Below, one piece after another: positions 1 through 40,159 of a DNA stretch of 40,159 nt. Each line of letters starts with the position of its first letter. Position 1 is the first letter of the stretch. Both the position numbers and the translations under genes were made by a program. Origin of the DNA: Kayfunavirus MT1B1P3; sequence record OZ035815.1, one strand, 5' to 3'. The notes under the pieces are model-generated. The model was not told the DNA's origin. It ran no database searches and worked only from the letters and a program-made list of their open reading frames with translations.

Positions 1-29
1 AAAACGATTAAAGGAGGCAGTGGTAAAAC

Positions 30-293
30 ATGACGCAGATGGACTTAGAGAAGTTCCTCTTAATGCTAGATACTGAACGTGCTCGACTCATGCTGCAAGA
101 CCTGCGGGATGACACTAAGCGTTCACCTCAGCTCTACAACGCCATTGAGAAGCTGCTTGCTCGTCACAACTTTGTGTTAAGCAAGGTGTCTGTTGACGAG
201 AAGACGCTCGCTGATATGGAGGCCCTGAACGCAGAGTACGATAAGGTGCTCTCAGCTACAGAAGATAATGACACCGGGTATGGTGTTCAATAA
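30..293 (+). CDS. 18: DNA packaging protein A / small terminase subunit (T7 gp18-like)
   Basis: 87-aa ORF with SD (aaaggagg) upstream; recalled similarity to T7 gp18 (FLxMLDT...RSPQLYNAI.KLL.RH.F); position immediately before 18.5 and 19. Confidence 0.8.
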   Translation: MTQMDLEKFLLMLDTERARLMLQDLRDDTKRSPQLYNAIEKLLARHNFVLSKVSVDEKTLADMEALNAEYDKVLSATEDNDTGYGVQ

Positions 294-295
294 GT

Positions 296-345
296 GTTAG
301 ACTCAAGGTCATTACTATATGTAGTGGCCTTTATGGTTAACACTA
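296..345 (+). promoter_or_regulatory. putative RNase III processing site (R18.5-like)
   Basis: motif gactcaaggtcat...gtggcctttatgGtta; near-identical motif recurs at 9741 and 16941 and resembles the T7 R1.1 site from memory. Confidence 0.35.
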
Positions 346-394
346 ACTAGTGGAGGCGACTCTACGTGAAATCTGATAAACCGGGAGGGCAACT

Positions 395-2901: not shown

Positions 2902-3060
2902 ATGGCAAAGACCAAAGCTGTACTTAAAGCTCTGGCGACCAATCGAGCTACATACAGGTTTCTTGCTGCTGTTCTACTTGCTGCTGGCGTTACTGCTGGA
3001 AGTCAGTGGGTCGGGTGGGTCGAGACTCTCGTATGTTCTCTGGTGTCTCAGTGTAATTAA
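2902..3060 (+). CDS. 19.5: small protein gp19.5-like
   Basis: 52-aa ORF translated by hand (MAKTKAVLKALATNRATYRFLAAVLLAAGVTAGSQWVGWVETLVCSLVSQCN); SD ggagg upstream; position and TYRFL motif resemble T7 gp19.5; below the ORF-track size cutoff. Confidence 0.55.
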   Translation: MAKTKAVLKALATNRATYRFLAAVLLAAGVTAGSQWVGWVETLVCSLVSQCN

Positions 3061-3136: not shown

Positions 3137-3299
3137 CTACTGTAGTCAAGGACTTTAGGTAACACCTTAAGAGAAGCTCACTTAGGGTCATCCTACTTAT
3201 TGGTCTATCCTAGTGTCGCCTGACCTACGGTCCTTGACCTACAGTGGCTGTGGCCTACAGTAGTGACGATGAGTTTTGGACCAAAAGTTTGAGACCACA

Positions 3300-3535
3300 T
3301 CTCACAGTTCAAGAACCTCAAGTCTCCCCATAGGCCCTCTTTAAGTCCAGACCAAAGGCCCTACCCGTTACTACTCCTTGCAGTCACAGCCAGTCTGTCA
3401 TAAGGTTGGACCGATGGTCAGGACTTCAGGTCAACGATAGGTCTAGGCTATGGCTTATGGAAGGACGATAGGTAGAGGCTATAGGTCTTCTTTGAGTCTC
3501 TATCTGTATAGTGTTATAGTATAACATTACGTCCT
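3300..3535. other. inferred physical genome left end and collapsed terminal repeat
   Basis: tctcacagttcaagaacctcaagtctccccatagg at 3300 resembles the recalled T7 left-end sequence (TCTCACAGTGTACGGACCTAAAGTTCCCCCATAGG); flanked by cctacag-type short repeats on both sides, as in the T7 concatemer junction; exact boundaries not determinable. Confidence 0.4.
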
Positions 3536-3538
3536 ACA

Positions 3539-3662
3539 CCTACAGTCTCACTAACCTACAGTCTCACTAACCTACAGTCTCACTAACCTACAGTCTCACT
3601 AACCTACAGTCTCACTAACCTACAGTCTCACTAACCTACAGTCTCACTAACCTACAGTCTCA
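3539..3662. repeat. tandem array of a 16-bp unit (cctacagtctcactaa), 7 full copies plus one partial
   Basis: counted directly: units at 3539, 3555, 3571, 3587, 3603, 3619, 3635 and a partial at 3651-3662; analogous in position to the T7 short-repeat array next to the terminal repeat. Confidence 0.9.
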
Positions 3663-3952: not shown

Positions 3953-3982
3953 TTGACAAGAAGTATATAATTAAAGTATTAT
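3953..3982 (+). promoter_or_regulatory. candidate host sigma70 early promoter (A2-like)
   Basis: TTGACA -35, 18-bp spacer, TATTAT -10. Confidence 0.4.
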
Positions 3983-4221
3983 GAATCTAAAGCAGTAAGA
4001 CGCCACCACGGAATTGGTAGCAGGTACACTCTAACCGCCTCACTAAGAGTAAATTGAGGGGCCGGGCTTCACCGAGTGAAGAAGGTCTGATTGTCGGATA
4101 CTAAGTTACTACCTATAGCGCGGTAACAGAGAACGTTGGGAACTACGCAATACCCCGAGTTGGACAGCCAACAATGCTCTTTAACAATCTGGATAAACTC
4201 TTAATGTACGCAGATAGCGAC

Positions 4222-4277
4222 TAACTACAGGGCCTTTGAGTCTACATCTGAAGGCCCTGACTGATAGTCACTAACTT
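4222..4277 (+). promoter_or_regulatory. putative early-mRNA processing hairpin (RNase III-like)
   Basis: inverted repeat agggcctt...aaggccct followed by ctgactgatagtcactaac, a motif repeated upstream of the next early genes. Confidence 0.3.
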
Positions 4278-4282
4278 AACGG

Positions 4283-4537
4283 ATGAACACTATGAAACAC
4301 TTAAGCACAATCACTAATCACAATGAAGTATTCGTGAACACTAAAGGTTATGCGTGGATTCAGCTTAAAGAGATGACAGGAGCGCGTCACCGTGTGGTAG
4401 TGCGCAAGGTCTCAAGCAAGCCGTTCAGCAACTACAGCATAGATACTGTGCGCATAGACAACGAGACCTACCTGATAGATTCGCAGATAACCGTGAGTCC
4501 TACAGCGGGCGTCTCAGCTCCTTATTTCGCTAACTGA
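4283..4537 (+). CDS. hypothetical early protein (basic, 84 aa)
   Basis: first ORF after the host-promoter region; no similarity recognised; T7 has no gene before 0.3. Confidence 0.45.
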   Translation: MNTMKHLSTITNHNEVFVNTKGYAWIQLKEMTGARHRVVVRKVSSKPFSNYSIDTVRIDNETYLIDSQITVSPTAGVSAPYFAN

Positions 4538-4610
4538 GAGTGATTAACTACAGGTCGTTAGACTTATAGCGGCCTGACTGATAGTCACTAACAACTGAGA
4601 GGATATAACT

Positions 4611-5141
4611 ATGGAACGTAACGCTAACGCATACTATGAGCTGCTGGCTGCAACCGTTGAGCTGTTCAATGAGCGTATTCAGTGCGACGAAATAGCTGAA
4701 GGCGATGACTACAGTGATGCGCTGCATGAGGTCGTAGACGGTAATGTTCCGCATTATTACCACGAGATTTACACGGTGATGGCTGCTGATGGTATTGACA
4801 ATGAGTTCGAAGACTCTGGGCTGATGCCTGAGACCAAGGACGTAACGCGTATACTACAAGCTCGCATCTATGAGGCACTGTATAACGATGTGTCTAATAG
4901 CTCTGAGGTGGTCTGGTTTGAGGCTGAAGAGGAAGACGAAAAGGCTGAAGAGGAGGACGAAAAGGCTGAATATTGGGTAGTTGACACTAGAACAGGCGAG
5001 ATAATTGAGGCAGCTGTATCACTTTGCGAGGCTATTGCATGTGCAAAAGAACTCTATGAGGAAGGTTTTCACATGCAGGTCGAAGACATCAACGATAACG
5101 TAGTGTTCGATCCTGAGGCTGCTGAGGAGGACTGCGAGTGA
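4611..5141 (+). CDS. 0.3: Ocr-like DNA-mimic anti-restriction protein with C-terminal extension (T7 gp0.3-like)
   Basis: strong recalled similarity to T7 Ocr (VPHYY..I..VMA..GID.EFEDSGLMP.TKDV.RILQARIYE); 176 aa versus about 117 in T7; very acidic; SD gagagga upstream. Confidence 0.85.
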   Translation: MERNANAYYELLAATVELFNERIQCDEIAEGDDYSDALHEVVDGNVPHYYHEIYTVMAADGIDNEFEDSGLMPETKDVTRILQARIYEALYNDVSNSSEVVWFEAEEEDEKAEEEDEKAEYWVVDTRTGEIIEAAVSLCEAIACAKELYEEGFHMQVEDINDNVVFDPEAAEEDCE

Positions 5142-5308: not shown

Positions 5309-5410
5309 CCTGACCATAACGCTGACAGGTGGGTACTGAGTGTTAAACTACAGGTCATCTACATGGTGGCCTGAGTGATTACCACTTGATAACTACAGAA
5401 GGAAAGAATA

Positions 5411-5758
5411 ATGACTGCTAAAACTCGCAATGTATTCTCGGTAGCATTTAAACTCAACGTTGTTAACTACTACACCTCTCTGCCTGAGGGAGTTATGGAT
5501 AGGGTGACTGAAACCGCCCAAAAGTTCGGGGTGGGAACGAGTTCGGTGAAGCGCTGGTTTACTCAGTATATCCGTGGTGAGCTTGCCATGGAAAACGCCA
5601 TTGCGGTGAGTCGCCGGCCTTCTAAGGTAATAACAGGTGATATTTACCACCTTGCAGGAAAGGACTTCAAGTCCAAAGAGGAGGCGATACGCTATGCGGT
5701 TGAGCTTGCTGGTGGGCTGACTGTAAGCAAGATGACCACTGTATCGGTGGAAGTGTAA
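5411..5758 (+). CDS. early protein with N-terminal transposase-like helix-turn-helix (IS3 OrfA-like HTH)
   Basis: N-terminus FSVAFKLNVVNYY...VTETAQKFGVGTSSVKRWFTQY resembles the IS3/IS911-family OrfA HTH pattern (FSxEFK...VA..xGV....L..W.KQY) from memory. Confidence 0.5.
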   Translation: MTAKTRNVFSVAFKLNVVNYYTSLPEGVMDRVTETAQKFGVGTSSVKRWFTQYIRGELAMENAIAVSRRPSKVITGDIYHLAGKDFKSKEEAIRYAVELAGGLTVSKMTTVSVEV

Positions 5759-5847
5759 CCGTGTAAGGCCTAGCTGAGTGATAGACGAGAGGTCATCGAC
5801 TGATAGGTGGCCTCAAAGATTACCACTTAAATTGATAGAGGTTAACT

Positions 5848-5937
5848 ATGAGTGTTGGACATTTGGTATGCTTATCTCCGGTCATCTTTCTGATAGCTTG
5901 GGGGATATACGACTGTATTAAACGGAAATCACTATGA
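5848..5937 (+). CDS. possible small hydrophobic peptide (29 aa)
   Basis: hand-translated MSVGHLVCLSPVIFLIAWGIYDCIKRKSL; stop overlaps next start (ATGA); speculative. Confidence 0.2.
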   Translation: MSVGHLVCLSPVIFLIAWGIYDCIKRKSL

Positions 5938-6131
5938 GTCTTGCACTATTGATAGCCATAGGCTATGGACTTATCGCCTACGTGCTGGTGAGAGACATCA
6001 ATAAAGCGCATAGAGTATACAAATTAAACTATGTACGTCTGGGCCGCTGGACTGTACGTCAACCTAACGGACGATTCATGCGCAACTTAGCGAACGTCTG
6101 GGATATAGCAACTATTGGGAGCAAACTGTAA
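5934..6131 (+). CDS. hypothetical early protein with N-terminal transmembrane-like segment
   Basis: 65-aa ORF, N-terminus LALLIAIGYGLIAYVLV hydrophobic; end overlaps next start (taATG). Confidence 0.4.
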   Translation: MSLALLIAIGYGLIAYVLVRDINKAHRVYKLNYVRLGRWTVRQPNGRFMRNLANVWDIATIGSKL

Positions 6132-6488: not shown

Positions 6489-9170
6489 ATGAGCGTCATC
6501 TCTATTGATAAACACGACTTCTCTGATGTGTCGAACGCCATTGAGCCGTTTAACCTGCTGGCTGACCACTACGGGAAGGACCTTGCAGTCAAGCAGCTTC
6601 AGCTTGAGCATGAGGCATACACTGAAGGCGAGCGACGTTTCATCAAAAACCTTGAGCGACAGACTGAGCGCGGGGAACTGGCAGACAATCAGGTCGCCAA
6701 GCCTTTGATGCAGACTCTGGTTCCTAAGATTGCGCAAGCCGTCAGGGAGTGGTATGAAGGTCCAGACGGGAAGCTTTCAACCTCTCGTCCTAGCGTAGCG
6801 TTCACCATGTTAAGCACCGAAGAGAAGGCCGTCAAGGACCGCTCTCTGCGTATCCCTTGCGAGTCTGCTGCGGTCATCATACTGAAGGTCATACTCTCCA
6901 AGCTGGTAAAGCCTGAAGGGATACCGATTACACCGATGGCCTCCGCGATAGGTCGCACACTTGAGGACGAAATCCGCTTCGGTCGCATCCGTGACAAAGA
7001 GAAAGAGCACTTCAAGAAGGCGATAGCTGATAACCTGAATAAGCGGGCCGGGGCGTCCTACAAGAAAGCCTACATGCAAGCGGTCGAGACATCCATGCTG
7101 GAGCAAGGCCAACTGGAAGATGCGTGGGGAACTTGGAGTCCTACAGAGGCTGTCCACGTTGGCATCAAGATGCTTGAGATTGTCATCCAGTCAACACAAC
7201 TGGTCGAGCTTAAGCGGTACGGTGCTGGCAATGCAGCGGCTGACGTAGAGATGGTCCACCTGTCAGACTTCTGGGTCAAGAAGATGGCACAACGAGGATT
7301 CAGCCTTGCGGGTATAGCTCCAGTCTACCAGCCTTGCGTCGTTCCACCTAAGCCGTGGACTGGTGTCGTAGGTGGTGGGTACTGGGCCAAAGGTCGCAGA
7401 CCGCTACCCCTGATTCGCTTAGGGTCTAAATCAGCGGTGGCACGTTATGAAGACGTATACATGCCTGAAGTCTATGACGCTGTGAATATCATCCAGAATA
7501 CACCTTGGAAAGTGAACAAGAAGGTACTGGACGTGGTGAACATGGTCGAGAAGTTGAACAACACGCCTATTGATGACATCCCTCAGATGGAGCCACTGAA
7601 GCCTGAAGACTATGCGGGTGAGACTGAGGAGGAACTCAAGGCATGGAAGAAGGCTGCTGCTGGTATCTATCGCCGCGAGAAGGCCCGACAGTCGCGAAGA
7701 TTGTCACTGAGCTTTATCGTTAACCAAGCGAACAAGTTCTCTCAGTTCAAGGCCATCTGGTTCCCGTACAACATGGACTGGCGTGGGCGCGTCTACGCTG
7801 TTCCGATGTTCAACCCTCAGGGTAACGACATGCAGAAAGGTCTCCTTACTCTGGCAGTCGGTAAGCCTATTGGTGCTGACGGTTTCAAATGGCTGAAGGT
7901 CCATGGTGCAAACTGCGCGGGTGTTGATAAAGTCACCTTCGAGGAGCGCATCAAGTGGGTGGAAGACAACCACGACAACATTATGGCTGCTGCTAAGGCA
8001 CCGATGGATAGCATTGAGTGGTGGGGCAAGTTAGACTCTCCGTTCTGCTTCCTTGCGTTCTGCTTCGAGTATGCTGGTGTAATGCACCACGGATTGTCTT
8101 ACTCCTGCTCATTACCGATAGCGTTCGATGGGTCATGCTCAGGGATTCAGCACTTTAGCGCGATGCTTCGTGATCACATAGGTGGACATGCAGTAAACCT
8201 AACGCCTTCCGGTAAGGTCCAAGACATCTACCGAATCGTGTCCGACCGCATTGAGGAAGAGCTTAAAGTCCTGCTGGTTAACGGCACAGACAACGAGATG
8301 GTAACTCACGAGGACAAGAAAACTGGTGAGATTACCGAACGCCTCAAGCTGGGGACACGAGAGCTGGCCCGGCAGTGGCTGACTTACGGCATGTCACGCA
8401 AGGTCACTAAGCGTTCAGTAATGACTCTGGCCTATGGGTCGAAAGAGTACGGCTTCGCAGACCAAGTTTATGAGGACATCGTGATGCCGGCGATTGACTC
8501 AGGGTCTGGCGCTATGTTCACCGAACCAAGCCAAGCGTCCCGCTTCATGGCTAAGATGATTTGGGAAGCTGTGAGCGTGACCGTAGTTGCTGCGGTTGAC
8601 GCGATGAAGTGGCTTCAGGGTGCTGCCAAGCTGCTGGCTGCTGAAGTGAAGGACAAGAAGACTGGAGAAATACTGAAGCCTTGCCTTCCGGTACACTGGG
8701 TAACACCTGATGGTTTCCCGGTCTGGCAGGAATACCGCAAGAAGGATACCACTCGTCTGAATCTGATGTTCTTAGGGTCATTCAACCTTCAGCCTACGGT
8801 CAACAAAGGCACGAAGAAAGAGCTGGACAAGCACAAGCAGGAGTCAGGCATTAGCCCGAACTTCGTCCACTCACAAGATGGTAGCCACCTACGCAAGACT
8901 GTAGTCCACACGCACCGCAAGTATGGCGTGATGTCCTTCGCAGTGATTCACGATAGCTTCGGGACCATCCCGGCTGACGCTGAGTATCTGTTCCGTGGCG
9001 TCCGTGAGACGATGGTCGAGACCTACCGCGATAACGATGTGCTGCTTGACTTCTACGAGCAGTTTGAATACCAGCTTCACGAGAGCCAGCGCGACAAGTT
9101 GCCTGAGCTTCCGAAGAAAGGTAAACTGAATATCGAAGACATCTTGTCTTCAGACTTTGCATTCGCGTAA
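6489..9170 (+). CDS. 1: DNA-directed RNA polymerase, single-subunit (T7 gp1-like)
   Basis: 893-aa ORF; conserved T7 RNAP blocks recognised (TLAYGSKEYGF, PNFVHSQDGSHLRKTVV, VIHDSFGT, final FAFA); size matches T7 RNAP (883 aa). Confidence 0.97.
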   Translation: MSVISIDKHDFSDVSNAIEPFNLLADHYGKDLAVKQLQLEHEAYTEGERRFIKNLERQTERGELADNQVAKPLMQTLVPKIAQAVREWYEGPDGKLSTSRPSVAFTMLSTEEKAVKDRSLRIPCESAAVIILKVILSKLVKPEGIPITPMASAIGRTLEDEIRFGRIRDKEKEHFKKAIADNLNKRAGASYKKAYMQAVETSMLEQGQLEDAWGTWSPTEAVHVGIKMLEIVIQSTQLVELKRYGAGNAAADVEMVHLSDFWVKKMAQRGFSLAGIAPVYQPCVVPPKPWTGVVGGGYWAKGRRPLPLIRLGSKSAVARYEDVYMPEVYDAVNIIQNTPWKVNKKVLDVVNMVEKLNNTPIDDIPQMEPLKPEDYAGETEEELKAWKKAAAGIYRREKARQSRRLSLSFIVNQANKFSQFKAIWFPYNMDWRGRVYAVPMFNPQGNDMQKGLLTLAVGKPIGADGFKWLKVHGANCAGVDKVTFEERIKWVEDNHDNIMAAAKAPMDSIEWWGKLDSPFCFLAFCFEYAGVMHHGLSYSCSLPIAFDGSCSGIQHFSAMLRDHIGGHAVNLTPSGKVQDIYRIVSDRIEEELKVLLVNGTDNEMVTHEDKKTGEITERLKLGTRELARQWLTYGMSRKVTKRSVMTLAYGSKEYGFADQVYEDIVMPAIDSGSGAMFTEPSQASRFMAKMIWEAVSVTVVAAVDAMKWLQGAAKLLAAEVKDKKTGEILKPCLPVHWVTPDGFPVWQEYRKKDTTRLNLMFLGSFNLQPTVNKGTKKELDKHKQESGISPNFVHSQDGSHLRKTVVHTHRKYGVMSFAVIHDSFGTIPADAEYLFRGVRETMVETYRDNDVLLDFYEQFEYQLHESQRDKLPELPKKGKLNIEDILSSDFAFA

Positions 9171-9185: not shown

Positions 9186-9416
9186 ATGTCAATGAAACTT
9201 GTAGCACACAACAAGGCATTCAACGATGGGTCGGGGCGTTGCCATGTAGAGCTTACTTATAAGGATTTAGTCATTCTCCGAGACAGACTACAAGCTGGTG
9301 TGACTGGGTGGATTCAACCTAACGAGTACAACCTTATAGCTTCGATTGATGAAGTGCTTAACGCGTGGATGGAAGACGAGCGCACTCAGTATCCGTCATT
9401 CCCTAGAATTAGATAA
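9186..9416 (+). CDS. hypothetical protein (76 aa)
   Basis: ORF with SD (gcaggag) directly after gene 1; no homolog recognised; T7 has no gene here. Confidence 0.45.
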   Translation: MSMKLVAHNKAFNDGSGRCHVELTYKDLVILRDRLQAGVTGWIQPNEYNLIASIDEVLNAWMEDERTQYPSFPRIR

Positions 9417-9999: not shown

Positions 10000-10263
10000 A
10001 TGGGCCGACTTTATAGTGGCAACCTCAACGCTTTCAGAGCAGCGTGTAACAGGCTCTACCAGTTAGACTTCGCTGTTATATCTCAGGAGTTTCAAGACCA
10101 TGTGTCACGCCAAGAGTGCATGAGACTCAGGGTGGAGGACCGAGCTGGTAACATCTTCGCGCTTGAGACCTTCACACACTACGATGAAGACGTGCTGTAT
10201 AATACTGCAACCAACTACCTCAACGGTCTCGCTGACCATATCGACACATGGAGCAAAGCATAA
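10000..10263 (+). CDS. 1.2: inhibitor of host dGTP triphosphohydrolase (T7 gp1.2-like)
   Basis: N-terminus MGRLYSGNLNAFRAA...RLRVEDRAGN matches recalled T7 gp1.2 (MGRLYSGNLAAFKAA...RLRIEDRSGN). Confidence 0.8.
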   Translation: MGRLYSGNLNAFRAACNRLYQLDFAVISQEFQDHVSRQECMRLRVEDRAGNIFALETFTHYDEDVLYNTATNYLNGLADHIDTWSKA

Positions 10264-11339: not shown

Positions 11340-11349
11340 CTAAATTTCA

Positions 11350-11388
11350 ACCCAGTGGTCTTAGCGGACTGCTGGGTTTCTTTGCTTT
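11350..11388 (+). terminator. rho-independent terminator after ligase (TE-like, for host RNAP)
   Basis: hairpin acccagtggtc / gactgctgggt (11-bp stem with 2 G-U pairs, 6-nt loop) followed by tttctttgctttg. Confidence 0.55.
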
Positions 11389-12382: not shown

Positions 12383-12469
12383 ACCTAGTGAGTGGTGCCG
12401 GGAGATGTACGAGAAGACTCTCAACCCGGACTACATTACGTTATACAACCAATGGAAGGAGCGCGGTTT

Positions 12470-15059: not shown

Positions 15060-16939
<1,880 letters not shown>

Positions 16940-26000: not shown

Positions 26001-26004
26001 TTGA

Positions 26005-26952: not shown

Positions 26953-26961
26953 GGAGGGCCT

Positions 26962-29866: not shown

Positions 29867-30438
29867 GTATCGGTCTAGGTATCATGTCTGTAGCTGGCGC
29901 CACTATGTCCGCATCCCAACAGGCCAAGGCTGAAGGTGCAGCAATTGACGCTCAGAACCGACAGTCTCAGGAAATGGTTAAGCAGATGAACTACTCTGAC
30001 GCCAACCTGAAGATGCAGGAGCGAGACCTGAAGGAGCAGCAGATGGCTGAACTGACAGAGACCACGCTCAACGGTATCCGCAATCAGGGTATGGTCAGAG
30101 CTGCGGTAGCTGAGTCCGGTCTGGAAGGTAACTCTATGGACAGGATTGAACGTCAGGTCGCAGGAGATACAGTCAAGGAGCGAGCAGGGATTACCGAAAG
30201 TTACAACCGCGACTATGCGGCTATCTTCGGGAACCGTATCGCCAACATTGAGAACACCAAGTCTGCTATCCGTGGTCAAGGTAAAATCATCAAGACCAGC
30301 CCACTGGCTCATGCACTTAATGTTGCTAACGCCGGGATGCAAGGTTACGCCGCTGGTAAGGCAATCTCTGGAGCGTCCAGCTCTGGTGGTGCTGCACCAA
30401 TTAGTGCTGCTAAAGGCACACCTACAGGTCATAGCTAA
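29851..30438 (+). CDS. 14: internal virion protein B (T7 gp14-like)
   Basis: 195 aa (T7 gp14 196 aa); starts MC as in T7 gp14; recalled motifs (SMDRI.R, NYRRDY.AIF, AAKGT.TG at C-terminus). Confidence 0.85.
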   Translation: MCEPVSIGLGIMSVAGATMSASQQAKAEGAAIDAQNRQSQEMVKQMNYSDANLKMQERDLKEQQMAELTETTLNGIRNQGMVRAAVAESGLEGNSMDRIERQVAGDTVKERAGITESYNRDYAAIFGNRIANIENTKSAIRGQGKIIKTSPLAHALNVANAGMQGYAAGKAISGASSSGGAAPISAAKGTPTGHS

Positions 30439-30449
30439 GAGGAGGACTA

Positions 30450-32732
30450 ATGGCTAGTAATATTGAATCAGCTCTGGCTAATCGGACTATGGGTCGTGGC
30501 AGAGCGCCTGGTAAAACTATCGCCGTCAACTATCAAGCAGCCAGCGTTCAGGCTCCAACTGGTGACTCCGGTCTGGCTCGTGCGTTGACCAACTTCGTTG
30601 AGTCTGGGACTGGATTGTACAAGCAGTTCAAGGACGAGGAGAAGACCAGAGCTGACGAGCGGTCTAACGAGATTATCCGTAAACTGACACCTCAGCAAAG
30701 ACGTGAGGCTATCCAGAACGGCACATTGCTGTATCAGGATGACCCTTACGCTATGGAAGCACTTCGAGTCAAGACTGGTCGTAATGCTGCCTTTGCTGTA
30801 GACGACGAGATTAACGTTAAGATTCAGAACGGTGAGTTCCGTACACGTCAGGACATGGAAGAGTATCGCCACCAGCGACTTCAGGACGCCGCTAAGTCCT
30901 ATGCTGAAGAGGCGGGTATTAACCCTACAGACGAGTTCTTCCAGCGTGGGTTCAACGATAACATCACAGACCGCAACATAGCTATCTATGGGTCTTTCAA
31001 TAAGTATTTCAGCAAGCAGTCTGAAGAGACAGCAATGTTGAACACCCGTATTGAGATGAACTCATTCCTGAACGATGGCGACCTGATGCGTTCACCTGAG
31101 TCTGGCAAGACATTCATGACCTACCTTCGTGACGGACTGACTACTGCTGCTATCCCCTCGGACCAGCGAGCGCGTGAGGTCATTACCCAGACTGTACGTG
31201 ACGCAATCCAGAAGTCAGGCGGCTCAAACTTCCTACAGCAAGTACGAGGCGAGCGAATCACACTTAACGGTGTGGATGCTACAGTCGAAGAGATTGTAGG
31301 ACCTGATGTCTTCAACGCTGCTATTGTTGAGGCACAAGGAACTGAGTACAAGCTGGTGGCTAAGTATCAGGAAGACTTAGCGTTAGGCGTTCAGTCTGCG
31401 ATTCTTCAGGACGACCCAACCATCGGTCTTGCCCAGATTCAGAAACTCAAGGAGCAGAACAACCTGCTTCAACCGGGTGAAGAACTCACACCTCAGCGTC
31501 AGATGCTTATTAATGCCGAAGCCAGCTTACTGGAAGCGGTAAAGCGTAAGTCTGCTGAACAGGCGAAGGAGAACACGAAGTTAATCCAGACCCAGAACAA
31601 GCAACTTGTCATTGACCAAGTTTATCAGCGACGTCTGGCTGGAGACAACGTGTCCACCAACTATGAGGACCTTCCGGTCTCTGAAGCCACAGGAGAGTTC
31701 AAGCGTTCAGACATGAACAACTATGCGTCTTCTAAGCTACAGCAGATTGACCAGATGGACATCCCTGAGGCTGCTAAGGACGCCCAGAAGGTGGCATTGT
31801 TAAGAGCTGACACTAACAACGGTCCGTTCCGTAATGCCTTCCAGACTCTTACTCAGGACGCTGCTGGTGAGTGGCAAGCTGCTGTCATCCGTGGACAGTA
31901 CGACCCAGACAAGATGCAACGCTTCGAGTCTCTTCGTCGTGCCTACACTCAGGACCCTTCAAGTTTCGCTGCTCTGTATCCTGACCAAGCTCAGTTGTTC
32001 TCTACGTTCGACCAGATGGACAAGATGGGTCTGGACCCTCAGACGATGATTGAAGCTGATAAGCAAGCTGCAAGTCAAAGCCGTGAGATGCGCATGGAGT
32101 CAGACAAGGCGTGGCAGGAGTTGAAGAACGACTCCAAGAACACCCAGTTGTCTCGCCTCCCAACGTCTCTGGACTCAAGTGCTCGTAAGGTCTGGGACTC
32201 ATGGTACTATCGTACAGGTAACGCTGACGCTGCAACGCAGCAGACTCAACGCTGGCTGAATGAGAACACCGTAACGTTCCAGTCTGAAGGTTCTGACGGT
32301 AAGTCCATCGGCATGGTGTCAAAGCACCAGCTTATGGTAGGGGATAACCCAGAGTCGTGGCAGGCTGGTCGAGACATTATCGACACCGCTCGTAAGCAGC
32401 TCATTAATGCCAACCCTTGGGTAGTGAACTCTCAGTTGTCCGTTGTTGAACAGAATGGCTCTATCTTCCTCCAAGACGCTACAGGTACTATTCGTATTCG
32501 CTACGATAAAGAACTTGTAGGTAAACTCTACCGCGAACAACAGCAGAAGGCACAAGATGCCGCATACGCTCAGGCAGAACGTGACGCTAACAAGCGAGCG
32601 CGTATCGTCGGGACCAAAGCTGCCGGTGACAAACGTCGAGCTGACCGAGAGGCCAACATCGAGAAGCGCGGAGGGATGTACAATGACGTCTCATTGGAGG
32701 GTATCGCAAACGTACTAATCGGTAAGGAGTAA
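30450..32732 (+). CDS. 15: internal virion protein C (T7 gp15-like)
   Basis: 760 aa (T7 gp15 747 aa); position between 14 and 16. Confidence 0.85.
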   Translation: MASNIESALANRTMGRGRAPGKTIAVNYQAASVQAPTGDSGLARALTNFVESGTGLYKQFKDEEKTRADERSNEIIRKLTPQQRREAIQNGTLLYQDDPYAMEALRVKTGRNAAFAVDDEINVKIQNGEFRTRQDMEEYRHQRLQDAAKSYAEEAGINPTDEFFQRGFNDNITDRNIAIYGSFNKYFSKQSEETAMLNTRIEMNSFLNDGDLMRSPESGKTFMTYLRDGLTTAAIPSDQRAREVITQTVRDAIQKSGGSNFLQQVRGERITLNGVDATVEEIVGPDVFNAAIVEAQGTEYKLVAKYQEDLALGVQSAILQDDPTIGLAQIQKLKEQNNLLQPGEELTPQRQMLINAEASLLEAVKRKSAEQAKENTKLIQTQNKQLVIDQVYQRRLAGDNVSTNYEDLPVSEATGEFKRSDMNNYASSKLQQIDQMDIPEAAKDAQKVALLRADTNNGPFRNAFQTLTQDAAGEWQAAVIRGQYDPDKMQRFESLRRAYTQDPSSFAALYPDQAQLFSTFDQMDKMGLDPQTMIEADKQAASQSREMRMESDKAWQELKNDSKNTQLSRLPTSLDSSARKVWDSWYYRTGNADAATQQTQRWLNENTVTFQSEGSDGKSIGMVSKHQLMVGDNPESWQAGRDIIDTARKQLINANPWVVNSQLSVVEQNGSIFLQDATGTIRIRYDKELVGKLYREQQQKAQDAAYAQAERDANKRARIVGTKAAGDKRRADREANIEKRGGMYNDVSLEGIANVLIGKE

Positions 32733-32736
32733 CATA

Positions 32737-35700
32737 ATGGCGACTCGTGGTATTCGCAATAACAATCCTGGTAATATACGGGTAAGTAAGGACCAATGGG
32801 AAGGAATGACTGGAGATGATGGCGCCTTCGTCACCTTCGATAGTCCAGAGTCTGGCGTCCGAGCTTTAGGTAAAAACCTGCTGTCCTACGGTCGCCAAGG
32901 TTATGACTCCATCGAGAAGATTATCAACAGATGGGCGCCTCCTAACGAGAATGACACTAAGGCTTATATTGACTCAGTGGTGGCTGCAACTGGTATTCCA
33001 GCTACCCAGAGTCTCGACCTATCGAACCCTGACACCCTGTCTGCTCTGGCGCAAGCTATTAGCTTCCATGAGACAGGCTCCCGGTACAATCCTGAAGTCT
33101 ATCAGAAGGGAGTCGAAAGAGCACTTAACGGCATTAGCCCAAAGACTCCACCAGTAAGCGCTAACGTATTTGACGCACTCACGGAAGGACTCAAGGCTAA
33201 ACCTAAAGTAGCTCTGGGTGAGAACCTTCCGACCGCTGCTGGTCTAAACATTGAGGGTCAAGCACCTGAAGCTCCCAACGAATCGTTCGGTGAGATGTTC
33301 TATAAGTCTACTGGCGAGACCATGCAGGAACGAGAGGATCGCTCTACGTGGTTCGGTTTCGGCGCGGCTACAGAAGCTGAAGTGAAGAACTCTATGGTCG
33401 GCGTGGCTATCCGCGCTGGTCAGACCGAGGACTCACTTGATGTCATTGGCGATGTGTTCAACCCTACCCGCTGGAACAACCATAAGTGGTCTCGTGAGGA
33501 GCTGGACCAGATTCGTAACGCTGGAGTTCTCCCTCAGTATTACGGTGTCATTACGGGTGGCTCTCCTCAGAACCTGACTGAGCTTATTAACTTGGCGCTT
33601 GAGAACCAGAAGTTGGACCAAGAGAAGGCCAAGGCTGGGACTGGTGCTCAGCTAGCAGCTGGTGTGATTGGTGCTGGTGTAGACCCGCTGACCTATGTTC
33701 CTATCGCTGGACAGGTTGGCAAAGGTGCGAAGCTAGTCAACAAGATGTTCACCGTGGCTGCTCAATCTGGAGCACTTGCTGGTGTATCAGAGATGGCCCG
33801 TACCTCAGTGGCTGGTGGGGATGCTCATGTGGCTGAAGCTATCCTTGGTGGTGCTCTCTTTGGTGGTGGTATGACTGCCATCGCTGATGGGTTAGGCAGA
33901 GCCTTAGGTCGCAACACTAATGAGTTTGCTGGCCCAGCTACACGTCTGGAAGCTCGTGAGACCGCTCGTAACGTTGATGGTCAGGACCTGTCTCGTCTTC
34001 CTATTCAGGAAGGTGAGCAGACCTTTAGTCATCAAGGCGTTAAGTTCGCTGACGTTCCTAATGAGCCGGGAAGTGTACGATTAGAAGATGGTTCAATCCT
34101 GATTGGTGAGAACCCTCTGAACCCTAAGACACGTCAAGTCTTCGACGAAGTGATTGAGCCAGAACGTGCCGCTGCTGGTGTGAACCTTGGTGGACTTACC
34201 GAGATTGGCCTGAAGCTGCTTCGGTCTGATAACCCTGAGATTCGTGGAGTAGCTGCTGACTTAGTACGTTCACCGACTGGTATGCAGTCTGGGGCCTCAG
34301 GTAAAATAGGGACAACTGCGTCAGACGTGTTCGAGAGGCTTCGTGCTGTGGACCATCGGTTCTACAACGACATCGACGATGCGGTTACTGAGGCACTAAA
34401 GGACCCGTACTTCCAGACAGCATTCTGGCGAGACTCTGGAGCATTCCGTCAGGACATCTACCAGCGCGTGTCTATGGCTATCGAAGATGGCAGCGGAAAC
34501 CTGAAGGCTGAACTGACTCCGGGAGAACTTAAAGTCTATGACCTACTGAAGAACCAGTTTGACGCCAAGCGTGAGATGATGGAGAACCCAGCTATGTTTG
34601 GTCGGTCAGATGCTCAGTCTATCTTTCCGGGTAGCCGCTTCAAGGGAACCTACGTCCCTCATGTGTATAGCAAACAGATGAAGGAGCTGTACACCAAGGA
34701 GCTTGGGAGTCCAGAGGCGTTGCAGGAGGCCATCAAGAAGTCATGGTTGACCAGCTATGCGTCTCGACCTGAAGTCAAGAAACGCGTGGACGAGGCACTC
34801 TTAGAGTCTGACCCTACGTTGACTCCAGAAGGGCTTGCGGCTGCGGTCGATAAGTACGCCAACGATAAGGCTTACGGTATCTCCCACACCGAGCAGTTCG
34901 AACGTTCATCCGTAATGGAAGAGAACATCAACGGTCTGGTTGGTCTGGAGAACAACAGCTTCCTTGAGGCTCGTAACCTGTTCGATAGCGATATGTCAAT
35001 CGTCCTGCCTAACGGTCAGACCTTCAGTGTCAACAACCTGCGTGAGTGGGACATGGACAAGATTGTCCCGGCATACAACCGTCGAGTTAATGGTGACATT
35101 GCTATTATGGCTGGTACAGGCAAGACAACGAAAGAAATGAAGGACTTGGTTGAGACCATGATGAACAAGGCTGGTGATGACGGAAAGTTGAAAGGTGAAG
35201 TATCTACCTTGCGTGACACACTGAAGATTCTAACTGGTCGTTCTCGACGTGATGGGGCTGACGATGCAGCCTTCGCTGCCGTGATGCGCACAATGACAGA
35301 CCTATCGTTCTTCGCTAAGAATGCCTATATGGGTGTTCAGAACTTAACGGAGATTGGTGGTATGCTGGCCCGTGGTAACGTTCGCGCAATGCTGCATGGA
35401 GTCCCAATTTTCCGTGACCTAGCCTTCCGTAACAAGAAAGTTGGGGCCTCAGAGATTAAGGACCTGCACAATGTTATCTTTGGTAAGGAGCTGGATGACT
35501 CAATCCGTCCGTCTAAACAGGATGTCATTGACCGTCTGCGATCTTACAGTGACCTCGGTCGTGGTGCAGCTACAGCTCTGGGGACTGCCAAGTATTACAC
35601 TGGCGAACTTGCAGTACGCTCTCCGTTCACTAAAGTCCTCAACGGTACGACCAACTACCTGTTAGATGCTGGACGTCAAGGCTTCCTGTCTGACATCGTG

Positions 35701-36624
35701 GAGCATAGCCTGACTGGTAGTAAGCGTAAGTTCGATGACCGCTGGCTGAAGACCGCTGGTATCTCTGACGAGCAGTGGAAGGGCATTAAGTCCCTAATCC
35801 GTGAGTCAGTGACTCGTGGTCCAGACGGGAAGTATACCATCAAGGATAAGAAGGCGTTCAGTCAGGACCCAAGGGCTATGGACCTATGGCGTATGGGTGA
35901 CACCATCGCTGACGAAACGTTACTCCGGCCCCACAAGCTGTCCAACATGGACGCCAAGGCTTATGGTCCTCTCGCTAAGACTGTCCTTCAGTTTAAGAAC
36001 TTCGTCATCAAGTCCATCAATGGACGTACCATGCGAACCTTCTATAACGCCACGAAGAACAACCGAGCGATGGACGCTGCCTTGTCCACTGTGATGTCTA
36101 TGGGTCTGGCTGGTATCTACTACATGGCTCAGGCGCACGTCAAGGCTTACGCTATGCAGGATGGTCGAGACCGTGACTACCTCAAGCAAGCTCTAGACCC
36201 GACGATGATTGGATATGCAGCTCTATCACGTAGTTCACATCTTGGTGGACCACTTGGGGTAGCTAACATTCTGGGTGGCATCGCTGGGTATGAGGACACT
36301 AAGATGCTCCGTTCGTCTATCCTACCTCGTTCGCCTACAGAGAAGCCTGAACGTGCCATCGCGTATGGTGCAGCTACAAGTGGCCCTGTGATGAATGTTG
36401 TTGGTAACTTCTTGGAGCAGGTTCCAGCTTTCGGATATGCTGCTAACGTTGGCGCTTCGGCTTACAACTTGGCTGGCTACCTCAAGGCGGATACTCGTGT
36501 CAACGAGCGTGACTACATGACCGGGATGTATAATACGTTCCGTGAACTGGTTCCGAACGACCCAATTACCCAGAAGCTGTTGCTTGGAACGTTTGAGGAG
36601 CAAGGTATCCACATCAAGGACTAA
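32737..36624 (+). CDS. 16: internal virion protein D with N-terminal peptidoglycan-hydrolase domain (T7 gp16-like)
   Basis: 1295 aa (T7 gp16 1318 aa); position; largest core protein. Confidence 0.9.
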   Translation: MATRGIRNNNPGNIRVSKDQWEGMTGDDGAFVTFDSPESGVRALGKNLLSYGRQGYDSIEKIINRWAPPNENDTKAYIDSVVAATGIPATQSLDLSNPDTLSALAQAISFHETGSRYNPEVYQKGVERALNGISPKTPPVSANVFDALTEGLKAKPKVALGENLPTAAGLNIEGQAPEAPNESFGEMFYKSTGETMQEREDRSTWFGFGAATEAEVKNSMVGVAIRAGQTEDSLDVIGDVFNPTRWNNHKWSREELDQIRNAGVLPQYYGVITGGSPQNLTELINLALENQKLDQEKAKAGTGAQLAAGVIGAGVDPLTYVPIAGQVGKGAKLVNKMFTVAAQSGALAGVSEMARTSVAGGDAHVAEAILGGALFGGGMTAIADGLGRALGRNTNEFAGPATRLEARETARNVDGQDLSRLPIQEGEQTFSHQGVKFADVPNEPGSVRLEDGSILIGENPLNPKTRQVFDEVIEPERAAAGVNLGGLTEIGLKLLRSDNPEIRGVAADLVRSPTGMQSGASGKIGTTASDVFERLRAVDHRFYNDIDDAVTEALKDPYFQTAFWRDSGAFRQDIYQRVSMAIEDGSGNLKAELTPGELKVYDLLKNQFDAKREMMENPAMFGRSDAQSIFPGSRFKGTYVPHVYSKQMKELYTKELGSPEALQEAIKKSWLTSYASRPEVKKRVDEALLESDPTLTPEGLAAAVDKYANDKAYGISHTEQFERSSVMEENINGLVGLENNSFLEARNLFDSDMSIVLPNGQTFSVNNLREWDMDKIVPAYNRRVNGDIAIMAGTGKTTKEMKDLVETMMNKAGDDGKLKGEVSTLRDTLKILTGRSRRDGADDAAFAAVMRTMTDLSFFAKNAYMGVQNLTEIGGMLARGNVRAMLHGVPIFRDLAFRNKKVGASEIKDLHNVIFGKELDDSIRPSKQDVIDRLRSYSDLGRGAATALGTAKYYTGELAVRSPFTKVLNGTTNYLLDAGRQGFLSDIVEHSLTGSKRKFDDRWLKTAGISDEQWKGIKSLIRESVTRGPDGKYTIKDKKAFSQDPRAMDLWRMGDTIADETLLRPHKLSNMDAKAYGPLAKTVLQFKNFVIKSINGRTMRTFYNATKNNRAMDAALSTVMSMGLAGIYYMAQAHVKAYAMQDGRDRDYLKQALDPTMIGYAALSRSSHLGGPLGVANILGGIAGYEDTKMLRSSILPRSPTEKPERAIAYGAATSGPVMNVVGNFLEQVPAFGYAANVGASAYNLAGYLKADTRVNERDYMTGMYNTFRELVPNDPITQKLLLGTFEEQGIHIKD

Positions 36625-36642: not shown

Positions 36643-36688
36643 GGGAGGCGCTACCATAGGTCTCCTTTAATTCATAACAGGAGGCATA

Positions 36689-39600
36689 ATGTCCACGATT
36701 ACACAATTCCCTTCAGGAAACACTCAGTACAGGATTGAGTTCGACTACCTAGCCAGAACGTTTATTGTTGTTACGCTGGTGAATAGCTCTAACCCTACCC
36801 TAAACCGTGTACTGGAAGTTGGTCGAGATTACCGATTCCTTAATCCAACGATGATTGAGATGTTGGTTGACCAATCAGGTTTCGACATCGTTCGTATTCA
36901 CCGTCAGACTGGAACTGACTTAGTGGTAGACTTCAGGAATGGCTCAGTGTTGACAGCTAGTGACCTGACTAATTCAGAGCTTCAGGCTATCCATATTGCA
37001 GAAGAAGGTCGAGACCAAACGGTTGACTTAGCGAAGGAATATGCCGATGCTGCTAGTAGCTCTGCTGGCAACGCTAAGGATAGCGAGGACGAAGCACGAC
37101 GAATCGCTGAGAGTATCAGGGAAGCTGGTAGACTTGGCTATATTACCCGTCGCTCCTTCGAGAAAGGCTACAACGTTACAACATGGAGCGAGGTCCTGCT
37201 ATGGGAAGAGGATGGTGATTATTACCGCTGGGATGGTACGCTTCCAAAGAACGTTCCTGCTGGTTCAACTCCTGAAACTTCCGGTGGGATTGGATTAGGT
37301 GCGTGGGTTAGTGTTGGTGATGCTGCTTTAAGAAGTCAGATTTCAAATCCTGAAGGGGCAATACTCTACCCTGAATTACATAGAGCACGCTGGCTTGATG
37401 AAAAAGATGTTCGTGGTTGGGGTGCTAAAGGTGATGGCGTCACTGATGATACAGCAGCGTTAACGAGCGCATTAAACGACATACCGGTTGGACAAAAGAT
37501 TAATGGCAATGGGAAGACATATAAGGTCACATCCCTACCTGACATTAGTCGCTTCATCAACACTCGTTTCGTTTATGAGCGCATTCCCGGACAACCTCTT
37601 TATTATGCCTCTGAGGAATTTGTTCAGGGTGAGTTGTTCAAAATAACGGACACCCCTTATTACAATGCGTGGCCTCAGGATAAAGCGTTCGTATATGATA
37701 ATGTGATATATGCACCTTACATGGGTAGCGATCGTCATGGTGTTAGTCGTCTGCATGTATCATGGGTTAAGTCTGGTGATGATGGTCAAACATGGTCTAC
37801 TCCAGAGTGGCTAACTGATCTGCATCCAGATTACCCTACAGTGAACTATCACTGTATGAGTATGGGTGTATGTCGCAACCGTCTGTTTGCCATGATTGAA
37901 ACACGTACTTTAGCCAAGAACGCATTAACCAATTGTGCATTATGGGATCGCCCCATGTCTCGTAGCCTGCATCTTACTGGTGGTATCACTAAAGCTGCAA
38001 ATCAGCAATATGCAACAATACATGTACCAGACCACGGACTATTCGTGGGTGATTTTGTTAACTTCTCTAATTCTGCGGTAACAGGTGTATCCGGTGATAT
38101 GACTGTTGCAACCGTAATAGATAAGGACAACTTCACGGTTCTTACACCCAACCAGCAGACTTCAGATTTGAATAACGCTGGAAAGAATTGGCACATGGGT
38201 ACGTCTTTCCATAAGTCTCCATGGCGTAAGACAGACCTTGGTCTAATCCCTCGTGTCACAGAGGTGCATAGCTTTGCTACTATTGATAACAATGGCTTTG
38301 TTATGGGTTATCATCAAGGCGATGTAGCTCCACGCGAAGTTGGGCTTTTCTACTTCCCTGACGCTTTCAATAGCCCATCTAGTTATGTTCGCCGTCAGAT
38401 ACCATCTGAGTATGAACCAGATGCGTCAGAGCCGTGCATAAAGTACTATGACGGTGTATTATACCTTATCACTCGTGGCACTCGTGGGGATAGGCTAGGT
38501 AGCTCTTTGCATCGTAGTAGAGACATAGGTCAGACTTGGGAGTCACTGAGATTTCCACATAATGTTCATCATACTACATTACCTTTTGCTAAAGTAGGGG
38601 ATGACCTTATTATGTTTGGTTCAGAACGTGCAGAAAATGAATGGGAAGCAGGTGCACCAGATGATCGTTACAAGGCATCTTATCCTCGCACCTTCTATGC
38701 ACGATTGAATGTAAACAATTGGAATGCAGATGATATTGAATGGGTTAACATCACTGACCAGATTTATCAGGGCGGAATAGTTAACTCAGGTGTAGGTGTT
38801 GGTTCGGTAGTTGTGAAGGATAATTACATCTACTACATGTTTGGTGGAGAGGACCATTTTAACCCATGGACCTATGGAGATAACTCAGCGAAGGACCCAT
38901 TCAAAGCGGATGGTCATCCCTCAGATTTGTATTGCTACAAAATGAAGATTGGCCCAAGCAATCATGTTTCCCGTGATTTCAGGTATGGTGCTGTACCTAA
39001 CAGAGCTGTTCCCGTGTTTTTTGATACGAATGGGATTCGCACTGTTCCTGCACCAATGGAATTTACAGGGGATTTGGGTTTAGGTCATGTGACCCTTAGA
39101 GCCAGCACCAGTAGTAACATTCGCTCTGAAGTTTTAATGGAAGGTGAATATGGGTTTATCGGGAAGTCTATACCGACTGATAACCCGGCAGGGCAGCGCA
39201 CCATATTTTGCGGAGGTGAAGGCACCAGTTCAACGACTGGCGCACAGATTACGCTTTATGGTGCAAATAACACAGACTCAAGGCGAATAGTTTACAATGG
39301 TGATGAGCATCTGTTCCAGACTGCTGACGTTAAGCCTTATAACGATAACGTCATTGCGCTTGGTGGACCAAGTAACCGTTTCACAACTGCATATCTCGGA
39401 AGCAACCCTATTGTTACTTCTAATGGGGAGAAGAAAACAGAGCCGGTAGTTTTTGATGATGCTTTCCTAGATGCCTGGGGTGACGTTCACTACATCATGT
39501 ATCAATGGTTAGATGCTGTTCAACTGAAAGGCAATGATGCTCGTATTCACTTCGGGGTTATTGCTCAGCAAATTCGTGATGTATTCATTGCACACGGTCT

Positions 39601-39883
39601 GATGGATGAAAACAGTACGAATTGTCGTTATGCCGTTCTGTGCTATGACAAGTATCCACGGATGACCGATACGGTATTTTCGCACAATGAAATCATTGAA
39701 CACACTGACGAGGAGGGTAATGTCACTACTACGGAAGAGCCTGTATTCACTGAGGTGGTTATCCATGAAGAGGGTGAGGAGTGGGGTGTTCGGCCTGACG
39801 GAATTTTCTTTGCTGAAGCCGCTTATCAGAGAAGAAAACTGGAAAGAATCGAAGCCAGACTTTCTGCTCTTGAACAGAAGTAA
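36689..39883 (+). CDS. 17: tail fibre/tailspike: T7 gp17-like N-terminal adaptor fused to endosialidase-like catalytic region and C-terminal intramolecular chaperone (peptidase S74-like) domain
   Basis: 1064 aa versus 553 in T7; N-terminus (FDYLARTFIVVTL...DYRF) resembles T7 gp17 N-terminal domain; remainder and C-terminal block (DAWGDVHYIMYQWLDAV...IHFGVIAQQI) recalled as K1F endosialidase and its C-terminal chaperone domain; marked drop in GC and change in codon use from about 37300. Confidence 0.85.
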   Translation: MSTITQFPSGNTQYRIEFDYLARTFIVVTLVNSSNPTLNRVLEVGRDYRFLNPTMIEMLVDQSGFDIVRIHRQTGTDLVVDFRNGSVLTASDLTNSELQAIHIAEEGRDQTVDLAKEYADAASSSAGNAKDSEDEARRIAESIREAGRLGYITRRSFEKGYNVTTWSEVLLWEEDGDYYRWDGTLPKNVPAGSTPETSGGIGLGAWVSVGDAALRSQISNPEGAILYPELHRARWLDEKDVRGWGAKGDGVTDDTAALTSALNDIPVGQKINGNGKTYKVTSLPDISRFINTRFVYERIPGQPLYYASEEFVQGELFKITDTPYYNAWPQDKAFVYDNVIYAPYMGSDRHGVSRLHVSWVKSGDDGQTWSTPEWLTDLHPDYPTVNYHCMSMGVCRNRLFAMIETRTLAKNALTNCALWDRPMSRSLHLTGGITKAANQQYATIHVPDHGLFVGDFVNFSNSAVTGVSGDMTVATVIDKDNFTVLTPNQQTSDLNNAGKNWHMGTSFHKSPWRKTDLGLIPRVTEVHSFATIDNNGFVMGYHQGDVAPREVGLFYFPDAFNSPSSYVRRQIPSEYEPDASEPCIKYYDGVLYLITRGTRGDRLGSSLHRSRDIGQTWESLRFPHNVHHTTLPFAKVGDDLIMFGSERAENEWEAGAPDDRYKASYPRTFYARLNVNNWNADDIEWVNITDQIYQGGIVNSGVGVGSVVVKDNYIYYMFGGEDHFNPWTYGDNSAKDPFKADGHPSDLYCYKMKIGPSNHVSRDFRYGAVPNRAVPVFFDTNGIRTVPAPMEFTGDLGLGHVTLRASTSSNIRSEVLMEGEYGFIGKSIPTDNPAGQRTIFCGGEGTSSTTGAQITLYGANNTDSRRIVYNGDEHLFQTADVKPYNDNVIALGGPSNRFTTAYLGSNPIVTSNGEKKTEPVVFDDAFLDAWGDVHYIMYQWLDAVQLKGNDARIHFGVIAQQIRDVFIAHGLMDENSTNCRYAVLCYDKYPRMTDTVFSHNEIIEHTDEEGNVTTTEEPVFTEVVIHEEGEEWGVRPDGIFFAEAAYQRRKLERIEARLSALEQK

Positions 39884-39994
39884 TAAACAAAACCCTTTTG
39901 CCATTAAGTTGTGGAGGTAGAGGCTAACTACACGCTAAACAACATAAGGTAACAACTTTGGGTCACGGACGACCCGCTTTAAACTGGAGGTTTT

Positions 39995-40159
39995 ATGATT
40001 GAGTTAGACTTCAAGAATGAGGTCCTTAAAGCCTCTCCTATCGTCGGGACCGCTGCGGCTGATGGTGCCAGTCGGTTCTTCTTCGGACTTACACTGAACG
40101 AATGGTTCTACGTTGCAGCTATCGCGTACACCGTTGTCCAGATTGGTGTGCTAGTCTAC
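39995..40159 (+). CDS. 17.5: holin, class II (T7 gp17.5-like), 3'-truncated by window end
   Basis: MIELDFKNEVLKASPIVGTAAADGASRFFFGLTLNEWFYVAAIAYTVVQIG matches recalled T7 gp17.5 (MLSLDFNNELIKAAPIVGTGVADVSARLFFGLSLNEWFYVAAIAYTVVQIG); SD ggagg upstream. Confidence 0.85.
   Translation, partial: MIELDFKNEVLKASPIVGTAAADGASRFFFGLTLNEWFYVAAIAYTVVQIGVLVY

Follow-up and report, generated by a model that had tools for sequence, protein, structure and literature searches.

The stretch of DNA analysed here, referred to as the window, is the whole 40,159 nucleotides (nt) of the sequence record OZ035815.1 (Kayfunavirus MT1B1P3). It opens with the last codons of a holin gene (gene 17.5) and continues through genes 18, 18.5 and 19 and a 19.5-like open reading frame (ORF) to one copy of a direct terminal repeat (DTR), beyond which lie an early region, the replication and structural genes and a tailspike gene, before it closes inside the same holin gene. 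All the features described below are on the + strand of the window. The window almost certainly represents a single full genome unit (40,159 bp) of the linear double-stranded DNA phage genome of the lytic, K1F-like Escherichia phage Mt1B1_P3.

GenBank phage records were searched with the window by megablast and hundreds of T7-family genomes were matched. The record of Mt1B1_P3 (MT496969.1, 40,313 bp, Kayfunavirus) shows a 99.8-100% match on the opposite strand, with the end of the record falling at window position 3300. Once rotated to start at 3300, the 40,159 bases of the window align to the 40,111 unique bases of MT496969.1 with 0 mismatches and a single gap of 48 bases. The Mt1B1_P3 record holds all of these unique bases together with 47 annotated coding sequences (CDS) and the same 202-bp repeat, but it is written on the opposite strand, begins at a physical end and has the DTR in two copies. 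In comparison with MT496969.1, the window is the reverse complement, rotated to another start, and its terminal repeat has collapsed into one copy; the phage has already been sequenced and published, and the sole departure from MT496969.1 is the copy number of a tandem repeat. A prophage or a plasmid was considered and ruled out, given that the sequence has no flanking host DNA, closes on itself and encodes no integrase. Rfam and transfer RNA (tRNA) scans of the whole window gave no matches.

Both ends of the window lie in gene 17.5. The 5' part of this holin gene (55 codons, 39995-40159), recognised from the translation of the joined ORF and from a T7 gp17.5 tblastn match at 39995-40156, runs off the window end and does not figure in the ORF list of the window. 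An earlier interpretation made from the letters alone, hereafter the sequence-only reading, had taken the 3' end of the gene to be missing. Such a truncated ORF speaks for an incomplete genome, in which sequence including the holin end would have been lost between window end and window start. However, the last 60 bases (40100-40159) and the first 60 bases (1-60) of the window are directly adjacent in MT496969.1, the alignment of the rotated window to the unique sequence of that record runs from one end to the other, and the supposedly absent part is located at 1-33, where it supplies the last 10 codons and the stop. Joined together, 39995-40159 and 1-33 form an intact 65-codon holin that ends at nt 33 and is 70% identical to T7 gp17.5. 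Its stop overlaps the ATG of gene 18 at nt 30, and the same overlap is found in the related phage vB_EcoA_ASO2B (MZ726794.1, hereafter ASO2B) and in K1F (NC_007456 / DQ111067), the type species of Kayfunavirus. A loss of sequence is thus practically out of the question. Because MT496969.1 runs without a break across the junction of window end and window start and the joined holin ORF is intact, the window is complete rather than near-complete, and the holin gene is merely divided by the linearisation point of a genome without missing sequence.

The same contiguity bears out the suggestion of the sequence-only reading that the window start is an assembly artefact. Among the matches listed, at least ten ENA records named 'Kayfunavirus' (OZ0357xx/OZ0358xx) align with their position 4 to window position 1 and thus start 3 nt ahead of the position homologous to window nt 1; OZ035813.1 starts with TAC, the final three bases of the window. 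Given this common start offset, the window start reflects either a convention of a shared pipeline or a cut made in assembly, and not a biological end. In a study using MT1B1_P3, the phages were assembled with SPAdes and deposited under PRJEB69283 (bioRxiv 10.1101/2023.11.22.567924). The OZ records presumably belong to this project, although the fetched record names none. The rotation is not of biological origin: during read assembly the two repeat copies collapse, the graph becomes circular, and the contig is opened at an arbitrary or pipeline-chosen point, which here falls in gene 17.5.

The physical ends would lie at 3300 (left) and 3501 (right), where the window carries its single copy of the DTR (202 bp, 3300-3501). 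Exactly the same 202 bp stand at both ends of MT496969.1, and window 3300-3501 also matches the second repeat copy of that record. The termini of Mt1B1_P3 were set from reads with PhageTerm by the phage's authors, Lourenço et al. (bioRxiv 10.1101/810705), a read-based mapping like that called for by the sequence-only reading, and this determination underlies the 202-bp DTR of MT496969.1, the same as found in the window. The K1F record has a terminal repeat of 178 bp, whose first base aligns to window 3300 and whose last base aligns to ~3500; over the first 67 nt of the DTR, the window and K1F do not differ. Both the end of MT496969.1 and nt 1 of K1F map to 3300, between 19.5 and the early region, which is where the sequence-only reading had placed the terminus. 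In T7 (NC_001604) as in the window, the DTR starts with TCTCACAGT and has CCCCATAGG at positions 27-35. Directly after the DTR, at 3502-3508, stands ATCTGTA, the counterpart of the T7 class II pause signal ATCTGTT, which in T7 occupies positions 161-167, immediately 3' of the 160-bp DTR. ATCTGTT acts on T7 RNA polymerase as a class II pause/termination signal, and its presence at the concatemer junction is known (bioRxiv 10.1101/2021.01.11.426313); the PE3-1 record labels the same motif 'concatemeric junction'. Judged by its position, ATCTGTA may have a pause function here as well. Furthermore, heptamer arrays flank the DTR on both sides, of CCTACAG in the window and of CCTAAAG in T7. Short CCTACRG repeats at 3222-3261, with CCTACAGT at 3238 and 3254, are the counterpart of the T7 SRR, and the corresponding T7 site to the left of the repeat has CCTAAAG/CCTAAGG arrays. 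In packaged form, the genome would start at 3300, proceed rightwards to 40159, resume at 1 and stop at 3501, a length of 40,361 bp.

Headful packaging, with permuted virion genomes and no fixed terminus, would make the permutation of the window biological. Many GenBank Kayfunavirus records do begin at differing positions, that of ASO2B within the DTR, but these differing starts are deposit conventions. Moreover, the exact 202-bp DTR of MT496969.1 (a record with PhageTerm ends), the K1F DTR at the homologous place, the end motifs held in common with T7, a fixed-end phage, and a terminase of the T7 type all argue for fixed ends, and we give a biological permutation next to no credence.

On the right side of the DTR, starting 36 bp from it, lies a tandem array of the 16-bp unit ACCTACAGTCTCACTA (3538-3662), which the Tandem Repeats Finder (TRF) reports at 7.8 perfect copies with 100% matches and which is the counterpart of the T7 SRL. 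The 48 bases that the window has in excess of MT496969.1 are three more copies of this unit, of which the window has 7 full ones and MT496969.1 has 4. Counts taken from further GenBank relatives range from 0 to 5 full units (Zappy 5; ASO2B 3; SD6, PhiNW-B1 and Esher7 2 each; K1F, LM33_P1 and SR04 1 each; PE3-1 0). An IMG/VR scan for a dimer of the unit returned no locus. The array is a variable-number repeat within Kayfunavirus. Given that copy number varies among relatives, the 48-bp difference in the array could be read as the mark of another isolate, the window then being a distinct natural relative of Mt1B1_P3. This is very unlikely, since the 40,111 aligned bases show not one substitution while the next closest isolate, ASO2B, is just ~97% similar, and independent isolates without one single-nucleotide polymorphism (SNP) are hardly to be expected. 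With the window taken as Mt1B1_P3 itself, a real expansion by slippage in the passage of a single phage stock, which would make the array a fast-changing locus, is a tentative option to which we give somewhat less than even weight.

Turning to the gene content, the 56 annotated T7 genes were translated and compared with the window by tblastn. Homologues were found for 36 of these 56 proteins, all on the + strand and in the T7 order, with identities ranging from 32% to 77% (RNA polymerase 63%, capsid 71%, terminase 65%). In the left part of the window the matches run through gp18 (54-239), 18.5 (395-823), 18.7 (510-758), 19 (862-2577) and 19.5 (2920-3048), and after the ends they continue with 0.3 (4659-4907), 1, 1.2, 1.3, 1.6, 1.7, 1.8, 2, 2.5, 3, 3.5, 4, 5, 5.7, 6, 6.5, 6.7, 7.3, 8-16, 17 (N-terminus only) and 17.5. 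The other 20 T7 genes have no homologue in the window by tblastn, and include 0.4 to 0.7, 5.9 and the HNH genes 2.8, 3.8, 5.3 and 7.7; without a gene 0.7 homologue, the phage has no protein kinase. T7 gene 19.2 gave a tblastn match at 1499-1732, which has stop codons in the window and was not called a gene. An ORF of 72 amino acids (aa) at 19649-19867, belonging to PHROG 2251, lies at the position of gene 5.9, the T7 RecBCD inhibitor gene, in a small module without a nucleotide-level counterpart in ASO2B. All 47 CDS of MT496969.1 map to the + strand without internal stops, none of the ten longest minus-strand ORFs has a PHROG match, and the cumulative GC skew climbs steadily and monotonically. 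The sequence-only reading had described the order as 18-18.5-19-19.5, then the ends, then 0.3 to 17-17.5, with all genes on one strand. Both statements hold, and the gene order is that of T7 and of K1F. Its observation is real and its interpretation is right in all essentials, the supposed loss of the holin end being its single error.

Genome similarity, expressed as BLAST coverage multiplied by identity, is ~97% to ASO2B, ~89% to K1F (94.5% coverage and 94.2% identity), ~82% to LM33_P1 and ~23% to T7. The ICTV, the international committee for virus taxonomy, groups phages in one genus at ≥70% nucleotide similarity over the genome and in one species at ≥95%. Measured against the type species K1F, the window falls inside the genus Kayfunavirus, which is also the GenBank taxonomy of MT496969.1, but outside the species Kayfunavirus K1F, and it lies in a 95% cluster with ASO2B and Mt1B1_P3. 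Traits of the T7 family are present, namely a single-subunit RNA polymerase of its own, the T7 order on one strand and predicted phage-type promoters. The phage belongs to Autographiviridae, Studiervirinae, Kayfunavirus. Hence, the description of the window as a near-complete T7-like genome stands as far as the T7 family is concerned, but the genome is complete, and it is K1F-like, not T7-like in the narrow sense. Mt1B1_P3 has been assigned to Teseptimavirus in PMC10470868 and bioRxiv 10.1101/810705. Given the genome similarity and the GenBank taxonomy, this label is wrong and the phage is a Kayfunavirus.

The closest relative after Mt1B1_P3, ASO2B, is collinear with the window and shares the endosialidase tailspike, a 115-aa early ORF and the ASCH gene that separates gene 11 from gene 12, but has no nucleotide-level match to the window modules 11724-11934, 12158-12383 and 19658-19872. 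K1F shares the gene order, the promoter consensus, the endosialidase tailspike, Ocr and the DTR position. It differs in its gene 5, whose two pieces enclose an HNH ORF and are joined across it, whereas that of the window is uninterrupted, and in lacking the ASCH gene (26725-26952), the 115-aa early ORF (5411-5758) and a 76-aa ORF (9186-9416). T7 shares the one-strand order, the single-subunit RNA polymerase, the features of the junction described above, the two terminators TE and Tphi and, in gene 10, the GGTTTTC site, but it has another promoter sequence and a tail fibre, which in the window is replaced by the endosialidase tailspike past aa 119. 'Acinetobacter phage vB_Aba_01KA' is ~95% identical to the window phage, with match statistics almost the same as those of Escherichia phage vB_Eco_1RS (39,611 vs 39,612 bp), and 'Enterococcus phage EFA-1' likewise falls in this Kayfunavirus cluster. 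The Acinetobacter and Enterococcus host labels of these two phages (PV615262.1, MT350292.1) look doubtful.

Gene 17 (36689-39883) encodes a K1-specific endosialidase tailspike of 1,064 aa with a C-terminal chaperone domain, as identified with Pfam and PDB. All six Pfam domains are found in order: Phage_T7_tail, End_N_terminal, End_beta_propel (E = 4.9e-222), End_beta_barrel, End_tail_spike and Peptidase_S74. The protein resembles T7 gp17 over aa 12-119 only, while residues 245-910 correspond to the K1F endosialidase structures 3GVL/1V0E (E = 0) and residues 790-1064 to the chaperone domain structure 3GW6. The predicted architecture is that of K1F gp17, with a T7-type adaptor, a beta-propeller with a nested beta-barrel, a stalk and a self-cleaving chaperone domain. 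The receptor-binding protein of MT1B1_P3 has been described earlier as a K1F-like endosialidase (bioRxiv 10.1101/2023.11.22.567924). Furthermore, the strain Mt1B1 is K1-capsulated, and loss of the capsule leads to resistance to P3 (PMC12361893).

The packaging and lysis genes at the left of the window start with gene 18 (30-293), the small terminase subunit (52% identity to T7 gp18, and gp18 in the MT496969.1 annotation), followed by gene 18.5 (395-844), an Rz-like i-spanin with 52% identity to T7 gp18.5. The o-spanin gene 18.7 (~495-770, 52% identity to T7 gp18.7) is embedded in 18.5 in another frame and has the lipobox TISGC; it is lacking from the MT496969.1 annotation. Gene 19 (841-2604) encodes the large terminase subunit, with 65% identity to T7 gp19 over aa 7-580. 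The 19.5-like small ORF (2902-3060, 52 aa) matches PHROG 2193 (E = 6e-25) and, weakly, T7 gp19.5 (33%, E = 5e-4). In the early region, a gp0.2-like ORF of 84 aa (4283-4537; PHROG 10124, 7.6e-41), which a note in the ASO2B record describes as similar to K1F gp0.2, lies ahead of gene 0.3 (4611-5141). The latter encodes the DNA-mimic anti-restriction protein Ocr, 176 aa long with an acidic C-terminal extension (PF08684, 2.4e-30; PHROG 2568, 3e-55), and is 58% identical to T7 gp0.3 by tblastn. The single-subunit RNA polymerase gene 1 (6489-9170) matches T7 gp1 over its full length (aa 1-883, 62.6% identity).

The replication genes comprise the DNA ligase gene 1.3 (10263-11339, 50% identity to T7 gp1.3), the primase/helicase gene 4 (15063-16763, 63% identity to T7 gp4A) and the uninterrupted DNA polymerase gene 5 (17003-19174, 55% identity to T7 gp5). 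For gene 3, the start is probably the ATG at 13384 rather than the annotated GTG (13417), because T7 gp3 aligns there from residue 1. Among the structural genes are the portal (head-tail connector) gene 8 (22138-23706, 67% identity to T7 gp8), gene 10 (24826-26000), with 10A at 24826-25869 (71% identity to T7 gp10A), the tail tube A and B genes 11 and 12 (26159-29319, 51% identity to T7 gp11 and gp12), and the internal virion/ejectosome genes 13, 14, 15 and 16 (29396-36624, 36-53% identity to T7 gp13 to gp16). Near the end of gene 10, frame analysis found GGTTTTC at 25848 with the -1 frame open as far as 26000, and a 10B product would be made by -1 frameshift as in T7; this probable extension (25848-26000) is lacking from the MT496969.1 annotation.

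Several small ORFs accompany this gene set. Between genes 11 and 12 lies an ASCH/DUF3850 gene of 75 aa (26725-26952; PF12961, 1.9e-19; PHROG 986, 'RNA-binding protein'), found neither in K1F nor in T7. The 115-aa early ORF at 5411-5758 is flanked by two conserved hairpins and resembles a separate cassette; absent from K1F, it is found in ASO2B, BUCT788, TM1 and Citrobacter phage SH3. Searches with it gave no match in PHROGs, just sub-threshold helix-turn-helix (HTH) matches in Pfam and just spurious short leucine-rich-repeat matches, none with a significant stretch, in PDB. An unannotated ORF of 29 codons (26058-26147), which is preceded 6 nt upstream by AAGGAGG and lies after the Tphi-like terminator and before gene 11, would encode a hydrophobic peptide (MVLIYTGLALFVLFWAYLL...); LM33_P1 and ASO2B have an identical copy, whereas none was found in K1F or T7. 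Two further ORFs are lacking from the MT496969.1 annotation, one of 65 aa belonging to PHROG 2385 (5934-6131, 1.9e-31) and the gp1.8 homologue at 12375-12473. A 75-aa ORF at 12155-12382, in another of the modules that ASO2B does not share at nucleotide level, has no PHROG match.

Phage promoters were predicted with the consensus CTAAACTATCACTATAGGGA, derived from all CTATAG sites and scanned with up to 3 mismatches; it replaced an earlier, narrower pattern taken from the phiOR site, which gave 2 matches and was too specific. The scan returned ten matches against 0 expected by chance, all of them intergenic and on the + strand, at 2700, 9721, 11426, 12625, 14991, 20861, 23703, 24702, 29345 and 36621. 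These predicted K1F-type promoters correspond in order to T7 phiOR, phi1.1, phi1.5/1.6, phi2.5, phi3.8, phi6.5, phi9, phi10, phi13 and phi17, and are in accord with the consensus that the ASO2B record gives for K1F. The first of them (2700-2722), with one mismatch to the consensus, is the predicted promoter at the phiOR position, T7 phiOR lying between genes 19 and 19.5. A strong A1-like sigma-70 early promoter is predicted by consensus match at 3953-3982 (TTGACA-18-TATTAT, 11/12), and the ASO2B record marks a promoter at the homologous site. As for terminators, a TE-like hairpin followed by a T-run stands after the ligase gene (11349-11378, -20.5 kcal/mol, z -3.8), and a Tphi-like terminator with a 17-bp stem followed by U6 stands after gene 10 (26003-26040, -25.2 kcal/mol, z -4.5), the equivalent position to that of T7 Tphi. 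Four conserved intergenic hairpins are also seen among the early genes, at 4213-4275, 4536-4592, 5338-5387 and 5776-5828, with the element sequence GAGTGATTAACTACAGGTC ... GGCCTGA(C/G)TGAT...CACT; two of the four fold with z values of -2.7 and -3.6. Their placement is like that of the sites at which RNase III processes the early mRNA of T7.

Together, these features suggest a life cycle on the T7 and K1F pattern. The endosialidase tailspike would degrade the K1 polysialic-acid capsule and so give access to the cell surface, after which the left end of the genome would enter first. Starting at sigma-70 promoters near 3950, the host RNA polymerase would read the early region, which encodes Ocr and the phage RNA polymerase; this phage enzyme would then transcribe the replication, structural and lysis genes from the ten K1F-type promoters. 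Replication would yield concatemers linked via the repeat, and the terminase (genes 18 and 19) would process a junction whose phiOR promoter, ATCTGT pause-like motif and flanking short-repeat arrays are conserved. Lysis would follow through the holin, the amidase and the spanins.

Some points weigh against this account. The steps of the life cycle are drawn from homology to T7 and K1F, and the physical ends given for the window come from homology and from the GenBank record for the same phage. The motif ATCTGTA differs from the T7 ATCTGTT by one base, and single base changes are reported to abolish the pause signal for T7 RNA polymerase (bioRxiv 10.1101/2021.01.11.426313). In addition, the three-unit difference from MT496969.1 in the 16-bp array may be either real variation or an assembly difference.

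The finding itself brings no new biology and its main value is one of bookkeeping. The contig can be labelled as the complete genome of a published, experimentally used phage, specific for the K1 capsule and employed in gnotobiotic mouse studies, and it can be re-oriented so that it starts from the true left end at 3300 and is completed on the right by a further copy of the 202-bp repeat. Moreover, the published record under-annotates conserved small genes, namely 18.7, gp1.8, the PHROG 2385 ORF and 10B. If the expansion of the 16-bp array is real, its copy number might be usable for marking lineages or might have an effect on concatemer processing and on packaging.

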